25,515 nucleotides of DNA from a virus (IMGVR_UViG_2609459834_000009:1-25515); one strand, 5' to 3'; positions 7,590-25,515 are shown, numbered from the stretch's first letter. The notes: generated from the letters alone by a model not told the origin. Program-made: numbers and translations.

Positions 7590-7609
7590 TACTGTAAATA
7601 TAAACAGTG
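7590..7609. promoter_or_regulatory. LexA (SOS) box, CTGT-N8-ACAG
   Basis: tACTGTaaatataaACAGtg, a near-consensus SOS box, about 45 bp upstream of the ORF at 7651 and overlapping AT-rich promoter-like sequence. Confidence 0.65.
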
Positions 7610-7650
7610 GTTATACATACAGTATTGCTTGTGGTGTCATAGGAGGAAAG

Positions 7651-7839
7651 ATGCAGGACTATTTTTTGGAGTCTTTGAAGCTCCAGCGCATTGATTTTTT
7701 TCTTAAGCTTGTAGCGGCTAGTGAGTGTAGTGATGAAGAGAAGGGGCTGGCTTTGCAGTGGGTTTCTGAACTGACAGATGAACTCATGGCAAAAATCAGA
7801 ACCCACGAATACAACCGCTCAATGGATGTCATCAGCTGA
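7651..7839 (+). CDS. Small SOS-regulated hypothetical protein (first gene of tum-like module)
   Basis: 62-aa ORF, ATG at 7651 with AGGAGG RBS; ORF-track start 7549 rejected because it would read through the LexA box. Confidence 0.5.
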   Translation: MQDYFLESLKLQRIDFFLKLVAASECSDEEKGLALQWVSELTDELMAKIRTHEYNRSMDVIS

Positions 7840-7849
7840 GGTGACTTTT

Positions 7850-8083
7850 ATGCGCATTGAAATAATGATCGATAAAGAGCAGAAGATTAGCCAGTCTACC
7901 CTGGACGCCCTTGAATCCGAGCTTTACCGCAATCTGCGCCCTATGTATCCCAAAACGGTAATTCGTATCCGCAAAGGTAGCTCTAACGGTGTAGAACTTA
8001 CCGGATTGCAACTGGACGAAGAAAGAAAACAAGTGATGAAAATTATGCAGAAGGTGTGGGAAGACGACAGCTGGCTGCATTAA
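7850..8083 (+). CDS. DinI-family protein
   Basis: 77-aa product MRIEIMIDKEQ...VWEDDSWLH with the DinI N- and C-terminal signatures (MRIE..., WE.D.W); GAGGTG RBS. Confidence 0.75.
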   Translation: MRIEIMIDKEQKISQSTLDALESELYRNLRPMYPKTVIRIRKGSSNGVELTGLQLDEERKQVMKIMQKVWEDDSWLH

Positions 8084-8306: not shown

Positions 8307-8378
8307 CGCGCGCCATGTGGTATGGAGATTGGATCTATTCATAACTTGATGTATAAAGTAGAAAAAAGCGGGGAGATT

Positions 8379-9302
8379 ATGAATAAAAAATTTACCGATG
8401 AGCAGCAACAACAGCTTATAGGACATCTCACAAAGAAAGGCTTCTATCGAGGAGCTAATATTAAAATAACCATTTTTCTATGTGGTGGTGACGTTGCTAA
8501 TCATCAATCTTGGCGTCATCAATTATCACAATTTTTAGCAAAGTTCAGTGATGTTGATATATTTTATCCAGAAGATCTATTTGATGATCTTTTGGCTGGT
8601 CAAGGGCAGCATAGCCTTTTAAGTTTAGAAAATATTCTGGCTGAAGCTGTCGATGTAATAATTTTATTTCCTGAAAGTCCGGGGTCTTTCACAGAGCTTG
8701 GTGCGTTCTCTAATAATGAAAACTTAAGGAGAAAGTTGATTTGCATTCAAGATGCAAAATTTAAATCAAAACGTAGCTTTATTAACTATGGTCCTGTTCG
8801 CCTGTTGCGTAAGTTTAATTCAAAATCTGTTTTGCGTTGTAGTTCAAATGAACTAAAAGAAATGTGTGATTCATCTATTGATGTTGCCAGAAAATTACGA
8901 TTATATAAAAAATTAATGGCATCTATTAAGCAGGTTAGGAAAGAAAATAAAGTATCAAAAGATATTGGAAATATATTATACGCAGAGCGGTTTCTATTGC
9001 CTTGTATCTATTTACTGGATAGTGTCAACTACCGCACACTGTGTGAACTAGCTTTTAAAGCGATAAAGCAAGATGATGTTTTATCTAAAATTATTGTTAG
9101 ATCCGTTGTTTCTCGTCTAATAAATGAACGAAAAATACTTCAAATGACTGATGGTTATCAGGTCACTGCTTTGGGGGCTAGCTATGTTAGGAGCGTCTTT
9201 GATAGAAAGACACTTGACCGATTGCGGCTTGAGATTATGAATTTTGAAAACCGTAGAAAATCAACATTTAACTATGATAAGATTCCGTATGCGCACCCTT
9301 AG
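8379..9302 (+). CDS. Retron effector protein (putative nucleoside 2-deoxyribosyltransferase-like N-domain plus C-terminal domain)
   Basis: 308-aa ORF in AT-rich DNA immediately upstream of msr-msd; its stop codon (TAG 9300-9302) lies inside the a1 repeat. Start ambiguous (ATG at 8322, 8349 or 8379). Confidence 0.7.
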   Translation: MNKKFTDEQQQQLIGHLTKKGFYRGANIKITIFLCGGDVANHQSWRHQLSQFLAKFSDVDIFYPEDLFDDLLAGQGQHSLLSLENILAEAVDVIILFPESPGSFTELGAFSNNENLRRKLICIQDAKFKSKRSFINYGPVRLLRKFNSKSVLRCSSNELKEMCDSSIDVARKLRLYKKLMASIKQVRKENKVSKDIGNILYAERFLLPCIYLLDSVNYRTLCELAFKAIKQDDVLSKIIVRSVVSRLINERKILQMTDGYQVTALGASYVRSVFDRKTLDRLRLEIMNFENRRKSTFNYDKIPYAHP

Positions 9303-9458
9303 CGAGAGGTTTATCATTAAGGTCAACCTCTGGATGTTGTTTCGGCATCCTGCATTGAATCTGAGTTACTGTCTGTTTTCCTTGTTGGAACGGAGAGCAT
9401 CGCCTGATGCTCTCCGAGCCAACCAGGAAACCCGTTTTTTCTGACGTAAGGGTGCGCA
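9290..9458 (+). ncRNA. msr-msd: Retron msr-msd non-coding RNA (template/primer for msDNA)
   Basis: Flanked by 12-nt inverted repeats a1 TGCGCACCCTTA (9290-9301) and a2 TAAGGGTGCGCA (9447-9458); internal msr hairpin AGAGGTT/AACCTCT and long imperfect msd stem around GGAGAGCATC-gcct-GATGCTCTCC; sits directly upstream of the RT gene. Matches my recollection of the Ec86 ncRNA. Confidence 0.85.
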
Positions 9459-9464
9459 ACTTTC

Positions 9465-10427
9465 ATGAAATCCGCTGAATATTTGAACACTTTTAGATTG
9501 AGAAATCTCGGCCTACCTGTCATGAACAATTTGCATGACATGTCTAAGGCGACTCGCATATCTGTTGAAACACTTCGGTTGTTAATCTATACAGCTGATT
9601 TTCGCTATAGGATCTACACTGTAGAAAAGAAAGGCCCAGAGAAGAGAATGAGAACCATTTACCAACCTTCTCGAGAACTTAAAGCCTTACAAGGATGGGT
9701 TCTACGTAACATTTTAGATAAACTGTCGTCATCTCCTTTTTCTATTGGATTTGAAAAGCACCAATCTATTTTGAATAATGCTACCCCGCATATTGGGGCA
9801 AACTTTATACTGAATATTGATTTGGAGGATTTTTTCCCAAGTTTAACTGCTAACAAAGTTTTTGGAGTGTTCCATTCTCTTGGTTATAATCGACTAATAT
9901 CTTCAGTTTTGACAAAAATATGTTGTTATAAAAATCTGCTACCACAAGGTGCTCCATCATCACCTAAATTAGCTAATCTAATATGTTCTAAACTTGATTA
10001 TCGTATTCAGGGTTATGCAGGTAGTCGGGGCTTGATATATACGAGATATGCCGATGATCTCACCTTATCTGCACAGTCTATGAAAAAGGTTGTTAAAGCA
10101 CGTGATTTTTTATTTTCTATAATCCCAAGTGAAGGATTGGTTATTAACTCAAAAAAAACTTGTATTAGTGGGCCTCGTAGTCAGAGGAAAGTTACAGGTT
10201 TAGTTATTTCACAAGAGAAAGTTGGGATAGGTAGAGAAAAATATAAAGAAATTAGAGCAAAGATACATCATATATTTTGCGGTAAGTCTTCTGAGATAGA
10301 ACACGTTAGGGGATGGTTGTCATTTATTTTAAGTGTGGATTCAAAAAGCCATAGAAGATTAATAACTTATATTAGCAAATTAGAAAAAAAATATGGAAAG
10401 AACCCTTTAAATAAAGCGAAGACCTAA
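9465..10427 (+). CDS. ret: Retron-type reverse transcriptase
   Basis: 320-aa product with RT motifs QGAPSSPKLANL and YADD, plus the retron-characteristic VTG motif (RKVTGLVI). Confidence 0.9.
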   Translation: MKSAEYLNTFRLRNLGLPVMNNLHDMSKATRISVETLRLLIYTADFRYRIYTVEKKGPEKRMRTIYQPSRELKALQGWVLRNILDKLSSSPFSIGFEKHQSILNNATPHIGANFILNIDLEDFFPSLTANKVFGVFHSLGYNRLISSVLTKICCYKNLLPQGAPSSPKLANLICSKLDYRIQGYAGSRGLIYTRYADDLTLSAQSMKKVVKARDFLFSIIPSEGLVINSKKTCISGPRSQRKVTGLVISQEKVGIGREKYKEIRAKIHHIFCGKSSEIEHVRGWLSFILSVDSKSHRRLITYISKLEKKYGKNPLNKAKT

Positions 10428-13378: not shown

Positions 13379-14212
13379 ATGACAGTGAAAGCAAAGCGTT
13401 TTCGCATCGGGGTGGAAGGTGCCACCACCGACGGACGCGAAATCCAGCGTGAATGGCTGGAACAGATGGCAGCCAGCTACAACCCGGCGGTGTATACCGC
13501 GCTGATTAACCTTGAGCACATCAAGTCTTATCTGCCGGACAGCACCTTTAACCGCTACGGTAAGGTGACGGCGCTGTTTGCTGAAGAAATCACGGAAGGT
13601 CCGCTGGCAGGCAAGATGGCGCTGTATGCCGACGTTGAGCCAACGGAGTCCCTGGTGGAACTGGTGAAAAAAGGCCAGAAATTATTCACCTCTATGGAAG
13701 TCAGCCCGAAGTTTGCTGATACGGGCAAAGCCTACCTGGTCGGCCTGGCAGCCACTGATGACCCTGCCAGTCTGGGCACTGAAATGCTGACATTCAGCGC
13801 CAGTGCAGCCCATAACCCGCTGGCAAACCGCAAGCAGAATCCCGCCAATCTCTTTACAGCCGCAGAGGAAACGGTGATCGAACTGGAAGAAATCCAGGAG
13901 GACAAGCCGTCCCTGTTTGCCCGTGTCACGGCGCTGTTCACCAAAAAAGAGCAGTCCGATGACGCCCGGTTCTCTGATGTGCATAAGGCCGTGGAACTGG
14001 TCGCCACTGAGCAGCAGAACCTGAGTGCGCGCACCGAAAAATCCCTGTCTGAGCAGGAAGAGCGCCTGTCTGAGCTGGAGACAGCCCTGCAGGCACAGCA
14101 GACCGCCTTTAACGAACTGGTGGACAAGCTGAGCCAAGAAGACAGCCGCCAGGACTACCGCCAGCGTGCAACAGGCGGTAACGCCCCCGCTGACACTCTG
14201 ACCAATTGCTGA
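13379..14212 (+). CDS. O: Capsid scaffolding protein (P2 gpO family)
   Basis: 277-aa product; first gene of the rightward capsid operon; acidic coiled-coil-like C-terminal half. Confidence 0.85.
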   Translation: MTVKAKRFRIGVEGATTDGREIQREWLEQMAASYNPAVYTALINLEHIKSYLPDSTFNRYGKVTALFAEEITEGPLAGKMALYADVEPTESLVELVKKGQKLFTSMEVSPKFADTGKAYLVGLAATDDPASLGTEMLTFSASAAHNPLANRKQNPANLFTAAEETVIELEEIQEDKPSLFARVTALFTKKEQSDDARFSDVHKAVELVATEQQNLSARTEKSLSEQEERLSELETALQAQQTAFNELVDKLSQEDSRQDYRQRATGGNAPADTLTNC

Positions 14213-21679: not shown

Positions 21680-23415
21680 GCACAAAATTTTATACCCTGC
21701 TGACGGATATTGGCGCGGCGAAACTTGCCAGCGCCGCCGCGCTCGGTGTGCCGCTAAAAATTACCCATATGGCGGTGGGCGATGGCGGCGGAGTATTGCC
21801 AACGCCGGACGCAAAGCAGACGGCACTGGTAAATGAGAAACGCCGGGCTGCGCTGAATATGCTTTATATCGACCCGCAGAACAGCAGCCAGATTATTGCT
21901 GAACAGGTGATCCCTGAAAACGAGGGCGGTTGGTGGATACGTGAAGTGGGCCTGTTTGATGAGTCCGGGGCATTGATTGCCGTGGGAAACTGCCCGGAAA
22001 GCTATAAGCCGCAACTGGCTGAAGGCAGCGGGCGTACCCAGACCGTGCGCATGGTGCTGATTACCAGCAGTACGGACAATATCACCCTGAAAATCGACCC
22101 TGCTGTAGTGCTGGCAACCCGCAAGTATGTGGATGACAAGGCACTGGAGCTGAAGGTGTACGCGGATGATCAGATGGCAAAACATCTTGCCGCACCGGAC
22201 CCGCATTCACAGTACGCGCCAAAAGCCAGCCCGACATTTACCGGAACCCCCAAAGCGCCAACGCCAGCGGCGGGGAATAATACCACGCAGGTTGCGACCA
22301 CTGCGTTTGTACAGGCGGCACTGACGGACCTTATTAATGGTGCGCCAGCCACGCTGGACACGCTGAAAGAAATAGCCGCAGCCATTAACAATGATCCGAA
22401 TTTCAGTACCACCATTAACAATGCGCTGGCACTAAAAGCACCGTTGTCGAGTCCGGCACTCACCGGAACGCCAACAGCCCCCACGGCGGCGCAGTCGGTC
22501 AACAATACACAGATTGCCACTACGGCTTTTGTGAAATCGGCGATTGCAGGAATGGTGGGTTCTGCACCTGCTGCACTGGATACACTGAACGAACTGGCGG
22601 CGGCACTGGGGAATGATCCGAACTTTGCCACGACAATGCTTAATGCGCTGGCAGGTAAACAACCGCTGGACAATACGCTTACCAATTTGAGTGGAAAGGA
22701 TGTAGCTGGTCTTCTCACATACCTTGGTATTAAAAACGCATCAACAACACAGGTGGGTTTAGTCCGGTTAACGTCATCGCGGGTATCGGGTGCAGAGGAT
22801 ATTGCAGCCACAGCTAATGCTGTCGCGCAAAACTATACGGACATAAAATCTTTGCAAAACAAAACTCAGGATTCAACTACGACACAGAAAGGAATTGTTC
22901 AACTTACATCATCAAGGGTATCCGAATCTGAAACGCTTGCTGCAACAGCAAAAGCGGCAGCGATGAATTATGCGGATATTGTAGCTCTGCAAGGCAAGAC
23001 TAATGATGCAACCACTACAAACAAGGGAATTATCCGCGTATCTGATTCCAGAACATCAACAGAATCTGGTGTTGCTGCATCATCACTTGCTGCATCACAA
23101 AACTATTCAGATATGAAAGGGTTGTTTGGTCAATGCGGAATGAAATCTAGAAATCTCGGTGTCGTATACACCAACAGCCAGTCTTTCGCCATATTTGTAA
23201 GCGTCAATGCGGTGCTGTCTGACGGTAGTTCATTTCTGAGCGCCAACGTAAGCGTGGATGGTAATTCGGCTAATTTTCGCGGCTCTCAGACAACAAATCT
23301 TGCAGGGCAAAGAGCAACTATCGCATTCATGGTTCCTGCCGGTGCGACCTATATTGTGCAGCAGTTTTCAGGAACAGTGTCAGATGTTACCTGGGTAGAG
23401 GTGGATAAAAAATGA
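21676..23415 (+). CDS. H: Tail fibre protein H with internal repeats and an AT-rich C-terminal receptor-binding region
   Basis: 579-aa product; conserved P2-H-like N-terminus; two tandem ~72-aa repeats and three ~43-aa repeats; composition shifts to AT-rich after about 22670. Confidence 0.85.
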   Translation: MSTKFYTLLTDIGAAKLASAAALGVPLKITHMAVGDGGGVLPTPDAKQTALVNEKRRAALNMLYIDPQNSSQIIAEQVIPENEGGWWIREVGLFDESGALIAVGNCPESYKPQLAEGSGRTQTVRMVLITSSTDNITLKIDPAVVLATRKYVDDKALELKVYADDQMAKHLAAPDPHSQYAPKASPTFTGTPKAPTPAAGNNTTQVATTAFVQAALTDLINGAPATLDTLKEIAAAINNDPNFSTTINNALALKAPLSSPALTGTPTAPTAAQSVNNTQIATTAFVKSAIAGMVGSAPAALDTLNELAAALGNDPNFATTMLNALAGKQPLDNTLTNLSGKDVAGLLTYLGIKNASTTQVGLVRLTSSRVSGAEDIAATANAVAQNYTDIKSLQNKTQDSTTTQKGIVQLTSSRVSESETLAATAKAAAMNYADIVALQGKTNDATTTNKGIIRVSDSRTSTESGVAASSLAASQNYSDMKGLFGQCGMKSRNLGVVYTNSQSFAIFVSVNAVLSDGSSFLSANVSVDGNSANFRGSQTTNLAGQRATIAFMVPAGATYIVQQFSGTVSDVTWVEVDKK

Positions 23416-23780
23416 TAACAATGATGAAGTATTACAAAGATGAAAATAACGTCGTATATGCCTACGATGCGTATGGCACACAGGATGCTTTTATCAAAGA
23501 AGGGCTTGTGCCAATCACCAGAAGTGAGGCTATGGCAATTATTAATCCCCCACCGACTCATGAACAACTCATCCAGGCTGCTGAAAATGAGCGACAGCGA
23601 TTACTGTCCGCCGCTGATGCAATTATGCTCGACTGGCGCACAGAGCTGATGCTGGGTGAAATCAGCGATGCCAACAGAGCTAAACTTTCGGCGTGGCTTT
23701 TATATAAGAATCAGGTTAAGGCTGTTGATGTAACAACCGACCCTGAGCATGTTAACTGGCCTGTCATCCCGGAACTTTAG
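23412..23780 (+). CDS. G: Tail fibre assembly chaperone (gpG/Tfa family)
   Basis: 122-aa ORF immediately after H with ATGA overlap; AT-rich like the H C-terminus. Confidence 0.7.
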   Translation: MITMMKYYKDENNVVYAYDAYGTQDAFIKEGLVPITRSEAMAIINPPPTHEQLIQAAENERQRLLSAADAIMLDWRTELMLGEISDANRAKLSAWLLYKNQVKAVDVTTDPEHVNWPVIPEL

Positions 23781-23785
23781 CTGGT

Positions 23786-23971
23786 TTGGCTATTGCCAGA
23801 TCCAAAGGCCGGATTGGTGGGCGTAGACCGAAGTTTAGCGACGAGCAGTGGCAACAGATGGGAGCGCTCATAGCGGCAGGGAAATCACGGCGTTATGTTG
23901 CACGTATCTATAACGTTGGGCTATCAACCCTATATAAACGATTTCCTGTTACTGGCATTCAAACGAAATAA
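23786..23971 (+). pseudogene. C-terminal fragment of a Gin/Pin/Hin-type serine DNA invertase (HTH domain only)
   Basis: Translation LAIARSKGRIGGRRPKFSDEQWQQ...VGLSTLYKRFP matches the C-terminal DNA-binding domain of invertases; no catalytic N-terminal domain; no ATG (TTG in track); similarity begins about 23771, directly at the tfa stop. Confidence 0.6.
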
Positions 23972-24107
23972 TTTATTTAAAGAGTTATTTGTCTAATGTT
24001 GGAAGCCGCAGCCACGTCGTATGCAAGAACGTGCTGCGGCTGGCTGGAGAACTTTCGATAGTGCGAGTATTGAATGATTTCCAGCCGTTACCGATTTTAC
24101 GTGTTAA

Positions 24108-24356
24108 TTAGTGAACAAACCACTCGTCAGCAGATTCCCAGGTATCTTTCAGAGTCTCCTGAACAAAAGTTTTTGCAGAATCCTTATCTGCTGTGCGTGT
24201 AACAGAAAGGCCATCGTTGCTGGTGGCTTTTACGATCACCTCTACATCGTCATAACGTTTACTGATGCGTCGGGTTAATTCTTCCTTTAACGCATCCACA
24301 GCACCGGTTGGCATTTTAGTCATTTTTTCTTTGGCTATGCAGATTTCAATACGCAT
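24108..24356 (-). CDS. DinI-family protein (second paralog)
   Basis: 82-aa product [11 protein letters not shown]...[10 protein letters not shown], close to my recollection of E. coli DinI. Confidence 0.8.
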
Positions 24357-24369
24357 AAAAGTCCCTCTA

Positions 24370-24417
24370 TACTGTGTTTGTATACAGTATTATTTTTAAC
24401 TGTATAGATAAACAGTG
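24370..24417. promoter_or_regulatory. Two tandem LexA boxes upstream of the second dinI-like gene
   Basis: tACTGTgtttgtatACAGta (24370-24389) and aaCTGTatagataaACAGtg (24398-24417), both CTGT-N8-ACAG. Confidence 0.65.
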
Positions 24418-25515
24418 TCAAGAGGCCTTATTTCTGCTCCTTTGGAGCTCTTCAAAACGATTATGTAAAGATTTCGGATACAGTTCGGTATATACCTGCC
24501 ATAGCACGTTTAATGAACGATGCCCTGTAACCTGGGCGACTTCCTCAATACTAAAACCAGCCTCAAATAAGCGACTTGCCCCTTCTCTACGCAAATCATG
24601 GTATCGCAGATCTTTAATACCTAATTTGCTTCTTACCCTCTGGAATCCCGCAGTAACAGAAGTGCTGTTATATGGAAAAATGAATTCTGATTTTTTGGGT
24701 TGTCGTTGGACGATATCCCAGGCTTCCCCAAGCAAGGCTACTTTCATATGGTTGCCTTCCTTTTTACGTGGATCTTTCCTGTCTCTTACGAGTATGGATT
24801 TTTGTTCCTGATCGAGATCCTCCCATCGTAATCGGCATACTTCACCGATTCGCATACATGACCACACAGAAAATTTGAGGATATCAACGAACGGAATTTT
24901 TGAGCATTTATGTGTAGATCGTTGTTGAAGACCTTCAATGAGCATGTCCAGTTCATCAGATGCCGGTCTACGATTACGACGATTTGATTTACCAATTAAA
25001 CCAAGTTTAAGTAGATATGGACGAGCGGCTTTTGCTGGGTTTGATGTGTAATTAATTCCATATACAGGTTTGGCAGCATCCAGAACACTGCCAAGATAAC
25101 TAACATCGTGGCTAACTGTAGCTGGACCTGCACCAGCGTTGTTTCTTAGCCTGCAATGTTCAATTACGTCATTTTCTGTCAGTTCAGATAGTTTGATCGC
25201 GGAGATGTCACTATCCATAAGCAGTTCCAGCACATATCTTTTAGTACGGCCTGCTTTACCTCCGGCATTTGGGTCATTTAAATATTTGTGTAGTAAGTCA
25301 CGGACTGTAAGTCCGTCAACTGCATTTGATGATGGAATGCCATATAGATCTAATTCCATCACTTTCTGTGTGCCCCATGTTTTGGCATGAGCATGTTTAG
25401 GGAATGTTTTACTTTCCCTGTAAGTGATAACACCTTTTTCTTTGATAATCACATTACAGCGATAGCGTGGTGTGCCATCGGATTTTAGTCGTTTCTCTAT
25501 GTTATAGTACGCCAT
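24418..25515 (-). CDS. Tyrosine-type integrase of a second integrative element (start at window edge; may be N-terminally incomplete)
   Basis: 365-aa translation with phage-integrase C-terminal catalytic region (HDLRREGASRL, ...VYTELYP); the ATG at 25513-25515 is the last codon of the window. Confidence 0.75.
   Translation of the reverse strand: MAYYNIEKRLKSDGTPRYRCNVIIKEKGVITYRESKTFPKHAHAKTWGTQKVMELDLYGIPSSNAVDGLTVRDLLHKYLNDPNAGGKAGRTKRYVLELLMDSDISAIKLSELTENDVIEHCRLRNNAGAGPATVSHDVSYLGSVLDAAKPVYGINYTSNPAKAARPYLLKLGLIGKSNRRNRRPASDELDMLIEGLQQRSTHKCSKIPFVDILKFSVWSCMRIGEVCRLRWEDLDQEQKSILVRDRKDPRKKEGNHMKVALLGEAWDIVQRQPKKSEFIFPYNSTSVTAGFQRVRSKLGIKDLRYHDLRREGASRLFEAGFSIEEVAQVTGHRSLNVLWQVYTELYPKSLHNRFEELQRSRNKAS

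Follow-up and report, generated by a model that had tools for sequence, protein, structure and literature searches.

The chromosomal dinI gene of E. coli is governed by a single imperfect LexA operator. According to literature cited in PMC3121763, the acidic C-terminal helix of DinI is a DNA mimic that contacts RecA. Homologues of dinI are also carried by the Gifsy prophages, where their control by LexA was shown experimentally (Lemire et al. 2011, PMC3121763); when these homologues were deleted in a non-polar manner, no effect on induction could be detected (PMC3121763). In the prophages PSP3 and Fels-2 the gene takes part in a split tum/dinI arrangement, which is described in the same work (PMC3121763), and in Klebsiella a small RNA derived from a 3' UTR, DinR, has been reported (PMC10907235). 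A second family of described systems concerns the integration of prophages and related elements into dusA. Elements with DusA-associated integrases (Farrugia et al. 2015, PMC4482086) supply a surrogate 5' end to the gene that they interrupt and leave the native 5' fragment behind at their far boundary; a semi-conserved att repeat of 21 bp is described for both of their ends.

The locus considered here lies at the right end of a 25,515-nucleotide stretch of viral DNA (IMGVR_UViG_2609459834_000009:1-25515), hereafter called the window, to which all coordinates refer (Table 1). Comparison with the systems mentioned above makes it very probable that positions 24003-25515 come from E. coli prophages whose integration target is the 5' end of dusA, and that they constitute the integrase-proximal end module of such prophages. 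This end module, counted from the invertase remnant up to and including int, is found in 634 of the 5426 complete E. coli genomes, and the isolated phage mEp460 carries the same module with an annotated DinI-like gene and promoter. Positions 1-23779 belong to a 186/P2-like prophage comprising an integrase, a 186-type CI, gene A, tum/dinI, a retron-like insert, genes Q through H and tfa. Compared with complete relatives, this prophage is devoid of everything from the invertase/FI region to ogr.

Table 1. Features of the window that bear on the dinI/integrase locus (positions counted from the first nucleotide; boxes given as read on the coding strand)
Feature	Position	Strand	Basis or remarks
First SOS unit of the 186-like prophage (predicted)	7592-8083	+	LexA box 7592-7607, tum-like 62-aa ORF 7651-7839, dinI-like gene 7850-8083
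Cassette of tail-fibre C-terminus and tfa (tail fibre assembly gene), ~0.85 kb	22937-23771	+	BLAST boundaries; common to P2-like and dusA prophages
8-bp microhomology GAACTTTA	23772-23779	.	tfa stop codon fused to the middle of the invertase gene (alignment)
Serine DNA invertase 3' remnant, pseudogene, HTH_7 domain only	23786-23971	+	Pfam HTH_7, 7.9e-13
dinI 3' UTR with two hairpins (24042-24086; 24004-24041)	24004-24086	-	Fold MFE -37.6 kcal/mol, z = -4.66
dinI-like gene, 82 aa, monocistronic	24108-24356	-	Pfam DinI, PHROG 189, 1GHH alignment
Shine-Dalgarno GAGGGA	24362-24367	-	Sequence reading
Putative LexA box 2 (CTGTATACAAACACAG)	24372-24387	.	Perfect arms; between -10 and Shine-Dalgarno, over the expected transcription start
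Predicted sigma-70-type promoter	24392-24421	-	-35 TTGACA 24416-24421, 18-nt spacer, -10 AAAAAT 24392-24397
Putative LexA box 1 (CTGTTTATCTATACAG)	24400-24415	.	Perfect arms; fills the -35/-10 spacer
Tyrosine integrase, DusA-associated, full length, 365 aa	24418-25515	-	PF00589, XerA alignment, dusA adjacency

The integrase matches PF00589 with an E value of 1.1e-20, and in an alignment to XerA (5HXY) the catalytic residues R222, H306, R309, H332 and Y342 are all present. Its gene and the integrase gene of phage mEp460 share 97 % nucleotide identity, and 1761 blocks of the collection list an Int protein identical to it. The source contig (GCA_000703505.1, JNPE01000026.1) continues for 192 bp past position 25515, and within this extension a dusA-like open reading frame starts on the opposite strand 89 bp beyond the integrase start. 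Other contigs that encode the identical Int protein are organized in the same way, with a divergent dusA 89 bp upstream and the 82-aa dinI 61 bp downstream in all ten of the ten contigs displayed. Among cross-species relatives of the integrase, dusA is the adjoining gene in about 35 out of 52 cases.

The 104 nt of “dusA” at the end of the contig match the attP side of mEp460 and differ from the native dusA of K-12; they are a surrogate dusA 5' end supplied by the phage. The attachment site was mapped by aligning the contig end with K-12 dusA (attB), the attL and attR of EcPF16 and the attP of mEp460. This alignment places the recombination point at ...ATGCTCGA, past which attB and attR proceed to CTGGACGG while attP and attL proceed to TAGGATGTACC. 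At the crossover the contig-end stretch reads ...CCTATGCTCGA; its continuation as CTGGACGG would correspond to attR and dusA, its continuation as TAGGATGTACC to attP. The source contig ends exactly at this crossover, where attP and attR diverge. In EcPF16, the native 5' fragment of dusA sits at the far end (attL) of the prophage. Judged from these alignments, the integrase can be assigned to the DusA-associated family and the edge of the window to the boundary between chromosome and att. Since the integrase is DusA-associated, the DNA beyond 25515 would be chromosome and not another element, and the integrase's own element lies to the left.

The locus thus resembles the described DusA-associated integrases and prophages (PMC4482086; mEp460, SKA5, ETEC H10407) in that the integrase diverges from the dusA 5' end at a distance of 89 bp. 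It also shares with these elements the surrogate dusA 5' end and the location of the native 5' fragment at the other end, as seen in EcPF16. The nucleotide identity of the integrase to those of mEp460, SKA5 and ETEC H10407 amounts to 97–99 %, and a great number of genomes encode an identical protein. The initial annotation had taken the integrase as the mark of a separate element abutting or inserted into the truncated prophage. This holds insofar as the integrase belongs to an element other than the 186/P2-like prophage and does mark the edge of that element, but the element lies to its left and is not inserted in the P2-like prophage. The idea of another element past the window edge had to be abandoned: past 25515 there is first the 89-bp spacer, then the dusA 5' end that the phage supplies, and then the att crossover. 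Extension of the assembly past this point, which had been proposed as a check, does yield the additional 192 bp of the source contig, but these lead to the dusA start and the crossover and to no further element. Nor is the integrase a fragment without an associated element, a case that the initial annotation had considered, as it has its full 365 aa, the complete catalytic set and a dusA element of its own.

Unlike in other dusA elements, only about 1.7 kb are found beside the integrase in this contig, and the att continuation is unassembled. What is left of this second element (23772-25515) consists of the invertase 3' fragment, dinI and int, and dinI belongs to the dusA element, not to the P2-like prophage. 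At the equivalent position, ETEC H10407 and most dusA prophages encode the full 187-aa invertase. Sequence identity to ETEC H10407 (99 %) and to phage SKA5 (97.6 %) starts at 23772, that to the lambdoid phage mEp460 further to the right, at 24003. The microhomology junction between tfa and the invertase gene recurs in several dusA prophages with Mu-like tails, EcPF16 among them, as well as in an IntS/argW prophage of EPEC E2348/69, which has neither dinI nor this integrase. This illegitimate junction is an old one and no peculiarity of the present contig. As the event that truncated the P2-like prophage, the microhomology was rejected because the junction pre-exists in the dusA prophages and in the argW prophage of E2348/69.

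In the contig, the two elements are joined through a tail-fibre/tfa cassette that both types of phage have in common, and the dusA element is not inserted into the P2-like prophage. Complete P2-like prophages and dusA prophages encode the identical 122-aa Tfa, and their fibre C-termini are nearly identical; the cassette of the window is flanked on its left side as in the former and on its right side as in the latter. Its allele differs at 15 positions from the sampled dusA-type copies, but at only 3–4 from the P2-type copies. The join between the P2-like prophage and the dusA module itself was found in none of the 5426 complete E. coli genomes, where the best matches extend no further than 23779. 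To the left the contig is flanked by ybjG-mdfA-ybjH-ybjI-ybjJ-rcdA and to the right by dusA. Both rcdA (0.887 Mb) and dusA (4.262 Mb) lie on the + strand in K-12, in direct orientation and 1.27 Mb apart. Since the two genes are co-oriented, a reciprocal crossover between the prophages would split the chromosome and not invert a part of it, and a simple inversion between prophages was rejected for the same reason. A simple real crossover is therefore problematic given this geometry, and the truncation may be an assembly artefact. A crossover within the invertase/dinI cassettes of P2-like prophages was also considered. Complete P2-like prophages do possess cassettes of an invertase and dinI between tfa and FI, and one complete P2-like relative has two further dinI genes there; one of these has a perfect LexA box upstream, the other two boxes with one arm mismatch each. 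This candidate was rejected since these cassettes have no detectable nucleotide similarity to 23780-25515 and the junction consists of an 8-bp microhomology.

An artefact and a real joint carry roughly equal weight. The chances are close to even that the contig is a mis-join, in which case the strain would harbour two separate prophages, a dusA prophage and, at rcdA/ybjL, a P2-like prophage that is complete, the contig would cross from one to the other via the ~0.85-kb cassette, and the truncated prophage would not exist. The identical Tfa and near-identical cassette in dusA prophages as well as in complete P2-like ones argue for this explanation, as do the lack of the join in complete E. coli genomes and the orientation of rcdA and dusA in K-12, which would make a reciprocal crossover split the chromosome. 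In addition, the source is a draft assembly in which the contig runs into another branch point after a further 192 bp. However, assemblers usually break at such repeats and seldom join across them, and the 15 differences from dusA-type copies as against 3–4 from P2-type copies make a mis-join less likely if the two copies of the strain differ likewise.

That the joint is real is also quite possible, if short of an even chance. A circular dusA phage could have inserted by homologous recombination, in the manner of Campbell, into the resident P2-like prophage via the cassette, or unequal recombination could have produced a duplication of about 1.27 Mb of which the observed join would be the novel joint. 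Both routes yield exactly the direct-orientation joint observed, and the cassette has demonstrably been exchanged among P2-like, Mu-like-tail and IntS/argW prophages. Moreover, a contig stop at the point where attP and attR diverge is expected if the strain holds more than one continuation. The argument is nevertheless a purely geometric one; complete E. coli genomes provide no second example of the join, and megabase duplications are unstable. The position of the contig end at the att crossover fits a branch in the assembly graph and discriminates none of the three possibilities, mis-join, Campbell insertion or duplication.

Whatever the origin of the join, the dinI gene of the end module is clearly recognizable. 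Its product scores 70.9 bits against Pfam DinI (PF06183; E = 1.1e-19, cut-off 24.2) and matches PHROG 189, “RecA filament binding protein DinI”, at 5.7e-31. The structure of E. coli DinI (1GHH) can be aligned end to end with the 82-aa protein (residues 1-81, E = 3.7e-13), and the acidic C-terminal helix is kept (TWESADEWF, as compared to TWESADDWF in 1GHH). The score of 73 bits does not reach the cut-off of 111 of the NCBIfam equivalog NF007893 (chromosomal DinI), which is why the product is best classed as a DinI-like paralogue and not as the host chromosomal orthologue. It is like chromosomal E. coli DinI in fold length, in its acidic C-terminal helix and in being the product of a gene with predicted LexA regulation, but identity between the two is only about 45 %, and the phage copy is horizontally mobile and has two perfect-arm operators.

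The window contains another member of the family, encoded at 7850-8083 in the 186/P2-like prophage, which matches Pfam DinI (2.2e-22) and PHROG 189 and shares 31 % identity with the first-mentioned protein. The initial annotation was thus right in placing a DinI-family gene on the minus strand at 24108-24356 and in counting two DinI paralogues in the window. The 7592-8083 arrangement matches the split tum/dinI of PSP3 and Fels-2 (PMC3121763) and the tum of phage 186. Unlike the tum/dinI of 186, PSP3 and Fels-2, the 24108 copy has no antirepressor partner. No minus-strand open reading frame of at least 20 aa is present 3' of dinI in 23900-24107, and since no frame follows the gene on its strand, a dinI-antirepressor operon of the Gifsy type was rejected. 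The 24108 gene and the Gifsy dinI (PMC3121763) have in common that they are prophage-borne DinI homologues with a LexA box in the promoter and an expression, predicted in the present case, that is independent of the phage repressor. However, the Gifsy gene heads an operon that also comprises a small antirepressor gene and irsA, and has one operator, whereas the gene discussed here is followed by no frame, has two operators and forms part of a unit that adjoins an integrase. A search of the literature for experiments with this particular phage dinI or its promoter found nothing specific.

The integrase and dinI genes are separated by 61 bp (24357-24417), and the coding strand shows in this order TTGACA, box 1, TTAAAAAT, AATA, box 2, TATAGAGGGACTTTT and ATG. 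The promoter scan credits TTGACA-18 nt-AAAAAT with 10 out of 12 matches; the -10 is imperfect, either as AAAAAT or as TAAAAA with a 17-nt spacer. The TGA stop codon of the integrase is contained within the -35 TTGACA, and box 1 lies directly 3' of this hexamer. Both boxes overlap the dinI promoter in the way given in Table 1, and the equivalent site in phage mEp460 is annotated as a promoter. Compared with the 20-mer consensus TACTGTATATATATACAGTA, the two boxes match at 17 and 16 of the 20 positions. Perfect CTGT-N8-ACAG motifs occur three times in the whole window, a number reached by none of 100 shuffled windows; the third is located at 7592-7607, upstream of the tum-like/dinI pair (7651-8083). 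The GC content over 24000-25515 is 41–43 %, as against 55–59 % in the P2-like late genes. The initial description of two tandem near-consensus LexA boxes in AT-rich DNA, within the 61 bp between the integrase stop and dinI, is therefore accurate, and both boxes even have perfect arms. SOS control of dinI, which had also been claimed, is very likely because the promoter is bracketed by two conserved LexA boxes.

Comparison across relatives provides good evidence that the boxes are functional operators. About 80 related loci, taken from viral contigs and other genomes, represent 26 distinct upstream variants, and both LexA motifs are kept in 26 of these 26. Among the 19 variants of equal length, none of the 16 arm positions varies, as compared to 15 of the 54 others (one-sided Fisher p = 0.012). 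Phage 2H10 keeps both boxes even though its dinI unit adjoins an unrelated integrase in opposite orientation, and a 91 %-identical copy of the unit at the prophage end of a Stx2a phage keeps the two boxes with one arm mismatch in box 1. The scan of IMG/VR viral contigs with DinI returned only 99–100 % identical copies, which offer little divergence for a test of conservation or covariation; the cross-genus cases came from an integrase scan of species-representative genomes. In Rosenbergiella, with a DinI that is 56–58 % identical, the order is the same, namely the integrase stop, TTGACA, CTGTATATATACACAG and dinI. In Proteus terrae the integrase is followed by a distant DinI-like frame (~23 % identity) with a single perfect box in front of it. 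All variants from E. coli and from phages retain box 2; it is absent in Rosenbergiella and Proteus, which have one box each.

The organization of the locus suggests a simple scheme. The integrase is transcribed away from dusA, its start codon lying, by comparison, 89 bp from the phage-supplied replacement start of dusA. Downstream of int and in the same orientation, the dinI unit comprises the promoter, the DinI-like gene and a presumed terminator hairpin. LexA dimers bound to box 1 in the -35/-10 spacer and to box 2 at the transcription start, expected near 24380-24386, would jointly exclude RNA polymerase, and the presence of two perfect-arm operators predicts tighter repression than would be achieved by a single weak box. 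Upon DNA damage, the formation of RecA filaments would lead to LexA self-cleavage and hence to expression of dinI independently of the prophage repressor. By analogy with the family, the DinI-like product would bind RecA filaments and tune their co-protease activity, which in turn may affect SOS mutagenesis and also the way in which LexA-like phage repressors are cleaved.

A more specific role of DinI in the life of the element can also be envisaged. As Escherichia, Rosenbergiella and Proteus all show the linkage of integrase, LexA promoter and dinI, this linkage may, although we consider this unlikely, represent a unit with a function in one subclade of the elements that integrate into dusA and not a random moron. 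DinI produced early in the SOS response could then serve as a brake or timer on the RecA-dependent cleavage of the LexA-like repressor of the element. If so, the timing of excision would be coupled to the level of damage, and co-resident prophages, e.g., the 186-like one, would be influenced.

At its other end, the dinI unit terminates in a structured 3' UTR. Its second hairpin is presumed to be the terminator and the left boundary of the portable unit. The homology to mEp460 starts next to it, at 24003; the mEp460 hairpin has a U-tract behind it, but that of the window has none, as is the case in invertase-bearing variants. The terminator scan reported nothing at 24004-24086, and an Rfam scan of the whole window, including the retron region, found no family at threshold and no known small RNA. 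Hairpin, dinI and two-box promoter together (24003-24421) are a discrete portable moron, i.e., a self-contained extra phage gene. The same terminator-dinI-two-box unit is present in the phages mEp460, SKA5 and 2H10 and in Stx phages.

A second role of the SOS transcript at the RNA level, either as the source of a 3'-UTR-derived small RNA like Klebsiella DinR or through antisense read-through into an intact convergent invertase gene, is quite improbable. In its favour, the structured 3' UTR (z = -4.66) and the module are conserved together, the hairpin is without a U-tract in the invertase-bearing variant, and DinR sets a precedent (PMC10907235). However, Rfam gave no match, the pairing region of DinR is described as Klebsiella-specific (PMC10907235), and a terminator explains the hairpins adequately; the copies of the dinI unit are nearly identical, too similar for covariation to be assessed. 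Even less credible is the view that the LexA motifs are chance palindromes, favoured by the AT-richness of the region, and that dinI is constitutive or phage-controlled, since with 0.37 motifs expected by chance per 25.5-kb window a stretch of 44 bp immediately in front of an SOS-family gene contains two, their arms are invariant where neighbouring bases vary, and the boxes are conserved across genera and in differing integrase contexts.

The preferred reading, an integrase-proximal end module of dusA-integrating prophages with its own SOS-responsive dinI unit, describes an ordinary and already known region. LexA-controlled dinI copies borne by prophages are common and already described (PMC3121763), as is the DusA-integrase family (PMC4482086), and two prophage dinI copies in one strain are unremarkable. 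On its own, the finding is of little importance, as it labels a very common prophage end module and identifies the window edge as a dusA attachment site. Its main added value is a word of caution on the structure of the contig: verification of the contig, which runs through a cassette that occurs in two types of prophage, should come before any biological conclusion from the apparent “truncated prophage abutting a second element”. For the SOS biology of such strains, the consequence is that they hold at least three LexA-controlled DinI proteins, from the host, the 186-type prophage and the dusA phage, and the phenotypes of single dinI deletions in SOS and prophage induction may therefore be masked.

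At the window's right-hand end, the stop codon of the DusA-associated integrase, TGA, is contained in the -35 hexamer of the dinI promoter, TTGACA (window 24416-24421), and the two genes are therefore packed without spare intervening sequence. On the other side of the integrase, the 89-bp spacer that separates its start from that of the surrogate dusA (13841-13928 of the source contig L005, just past the window) holds three copies of GGGAACC/GGTTCCC, to which the integrase or a regulator could bind. The contig itself stops 192 bp beyond the window, its last base being the final base of the att core ending in ATGCTCGA (L005 14025-14032). Since this is exactly the point where the attR and attB sequences part from those of attP and attL, the stop suggests a branch in the assembly graph, such as a phage circle after excision, or a second copy, would give.

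The P2-like prophage has an SOS switch of its own, in which a perfect LexA box, CTGTAAATATAAACAG, is accompanied by a tum-like ORF of 62 aa (PHROG 698) and a DinI-like gene of 77 aa; this split tum/dinI order is the one reported for PSP3 and Fels-2. The nearby retron-like insert encodes two proteins, one of 326 aa from the STM3845 family (PF28093), the other a reverse transcriptase of 320 aa (RVT_1, 2.9e-25). No msr/msd RNA was detected by Rfam at the gathering threshold. In the complete P2-like prophage of strain 23AR0998, the interval between tfa and the sheath gene contains an invertase, dinI, an ORF of 110 aa, a gene with a hemerythrin domain, another dinI and another invertase. A perfect LexA box accompanies one of the two dinI genes; the other dinI shares two boxes, each with one mismatch, with the divergent 110-aa ORF.

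Coordinates of the SOS switch, the retron-like insert and the dinI interval of the relative
Feature	Location	Content or setting
SOS switch (186-type), P2-like prophage	window 7592-8083	LexA box, tum-like ORF, DinI-like gene
Retron-like insert	window 8322-10427	P2 hotspot, flanked by dinI and the portal gene
tfa-to-sheath-gene interval, 23AR0998 prophage	L004 35160-36900	

Just 3' of the stop codon of the invertase remnant, the window lacks 7 bp, TTGCTTT, relative to most dusA prophages (around 23975-23985), a deletion common to only a few loci (L014 and L070). The microhomology junction between tfa and the invertase, GAACTTTA (window 23772-23779), recurs in an IntS prophage of EPEC E2348/69 at tRNA-Arg (L161 14045-14242), which has kept the hairpins of the dinI 3'-UTR and lost the dinI coding sequence. 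The block made up of fibre-C, tfa and the invertase remnant is thus a travelling mosaic module in its own right.
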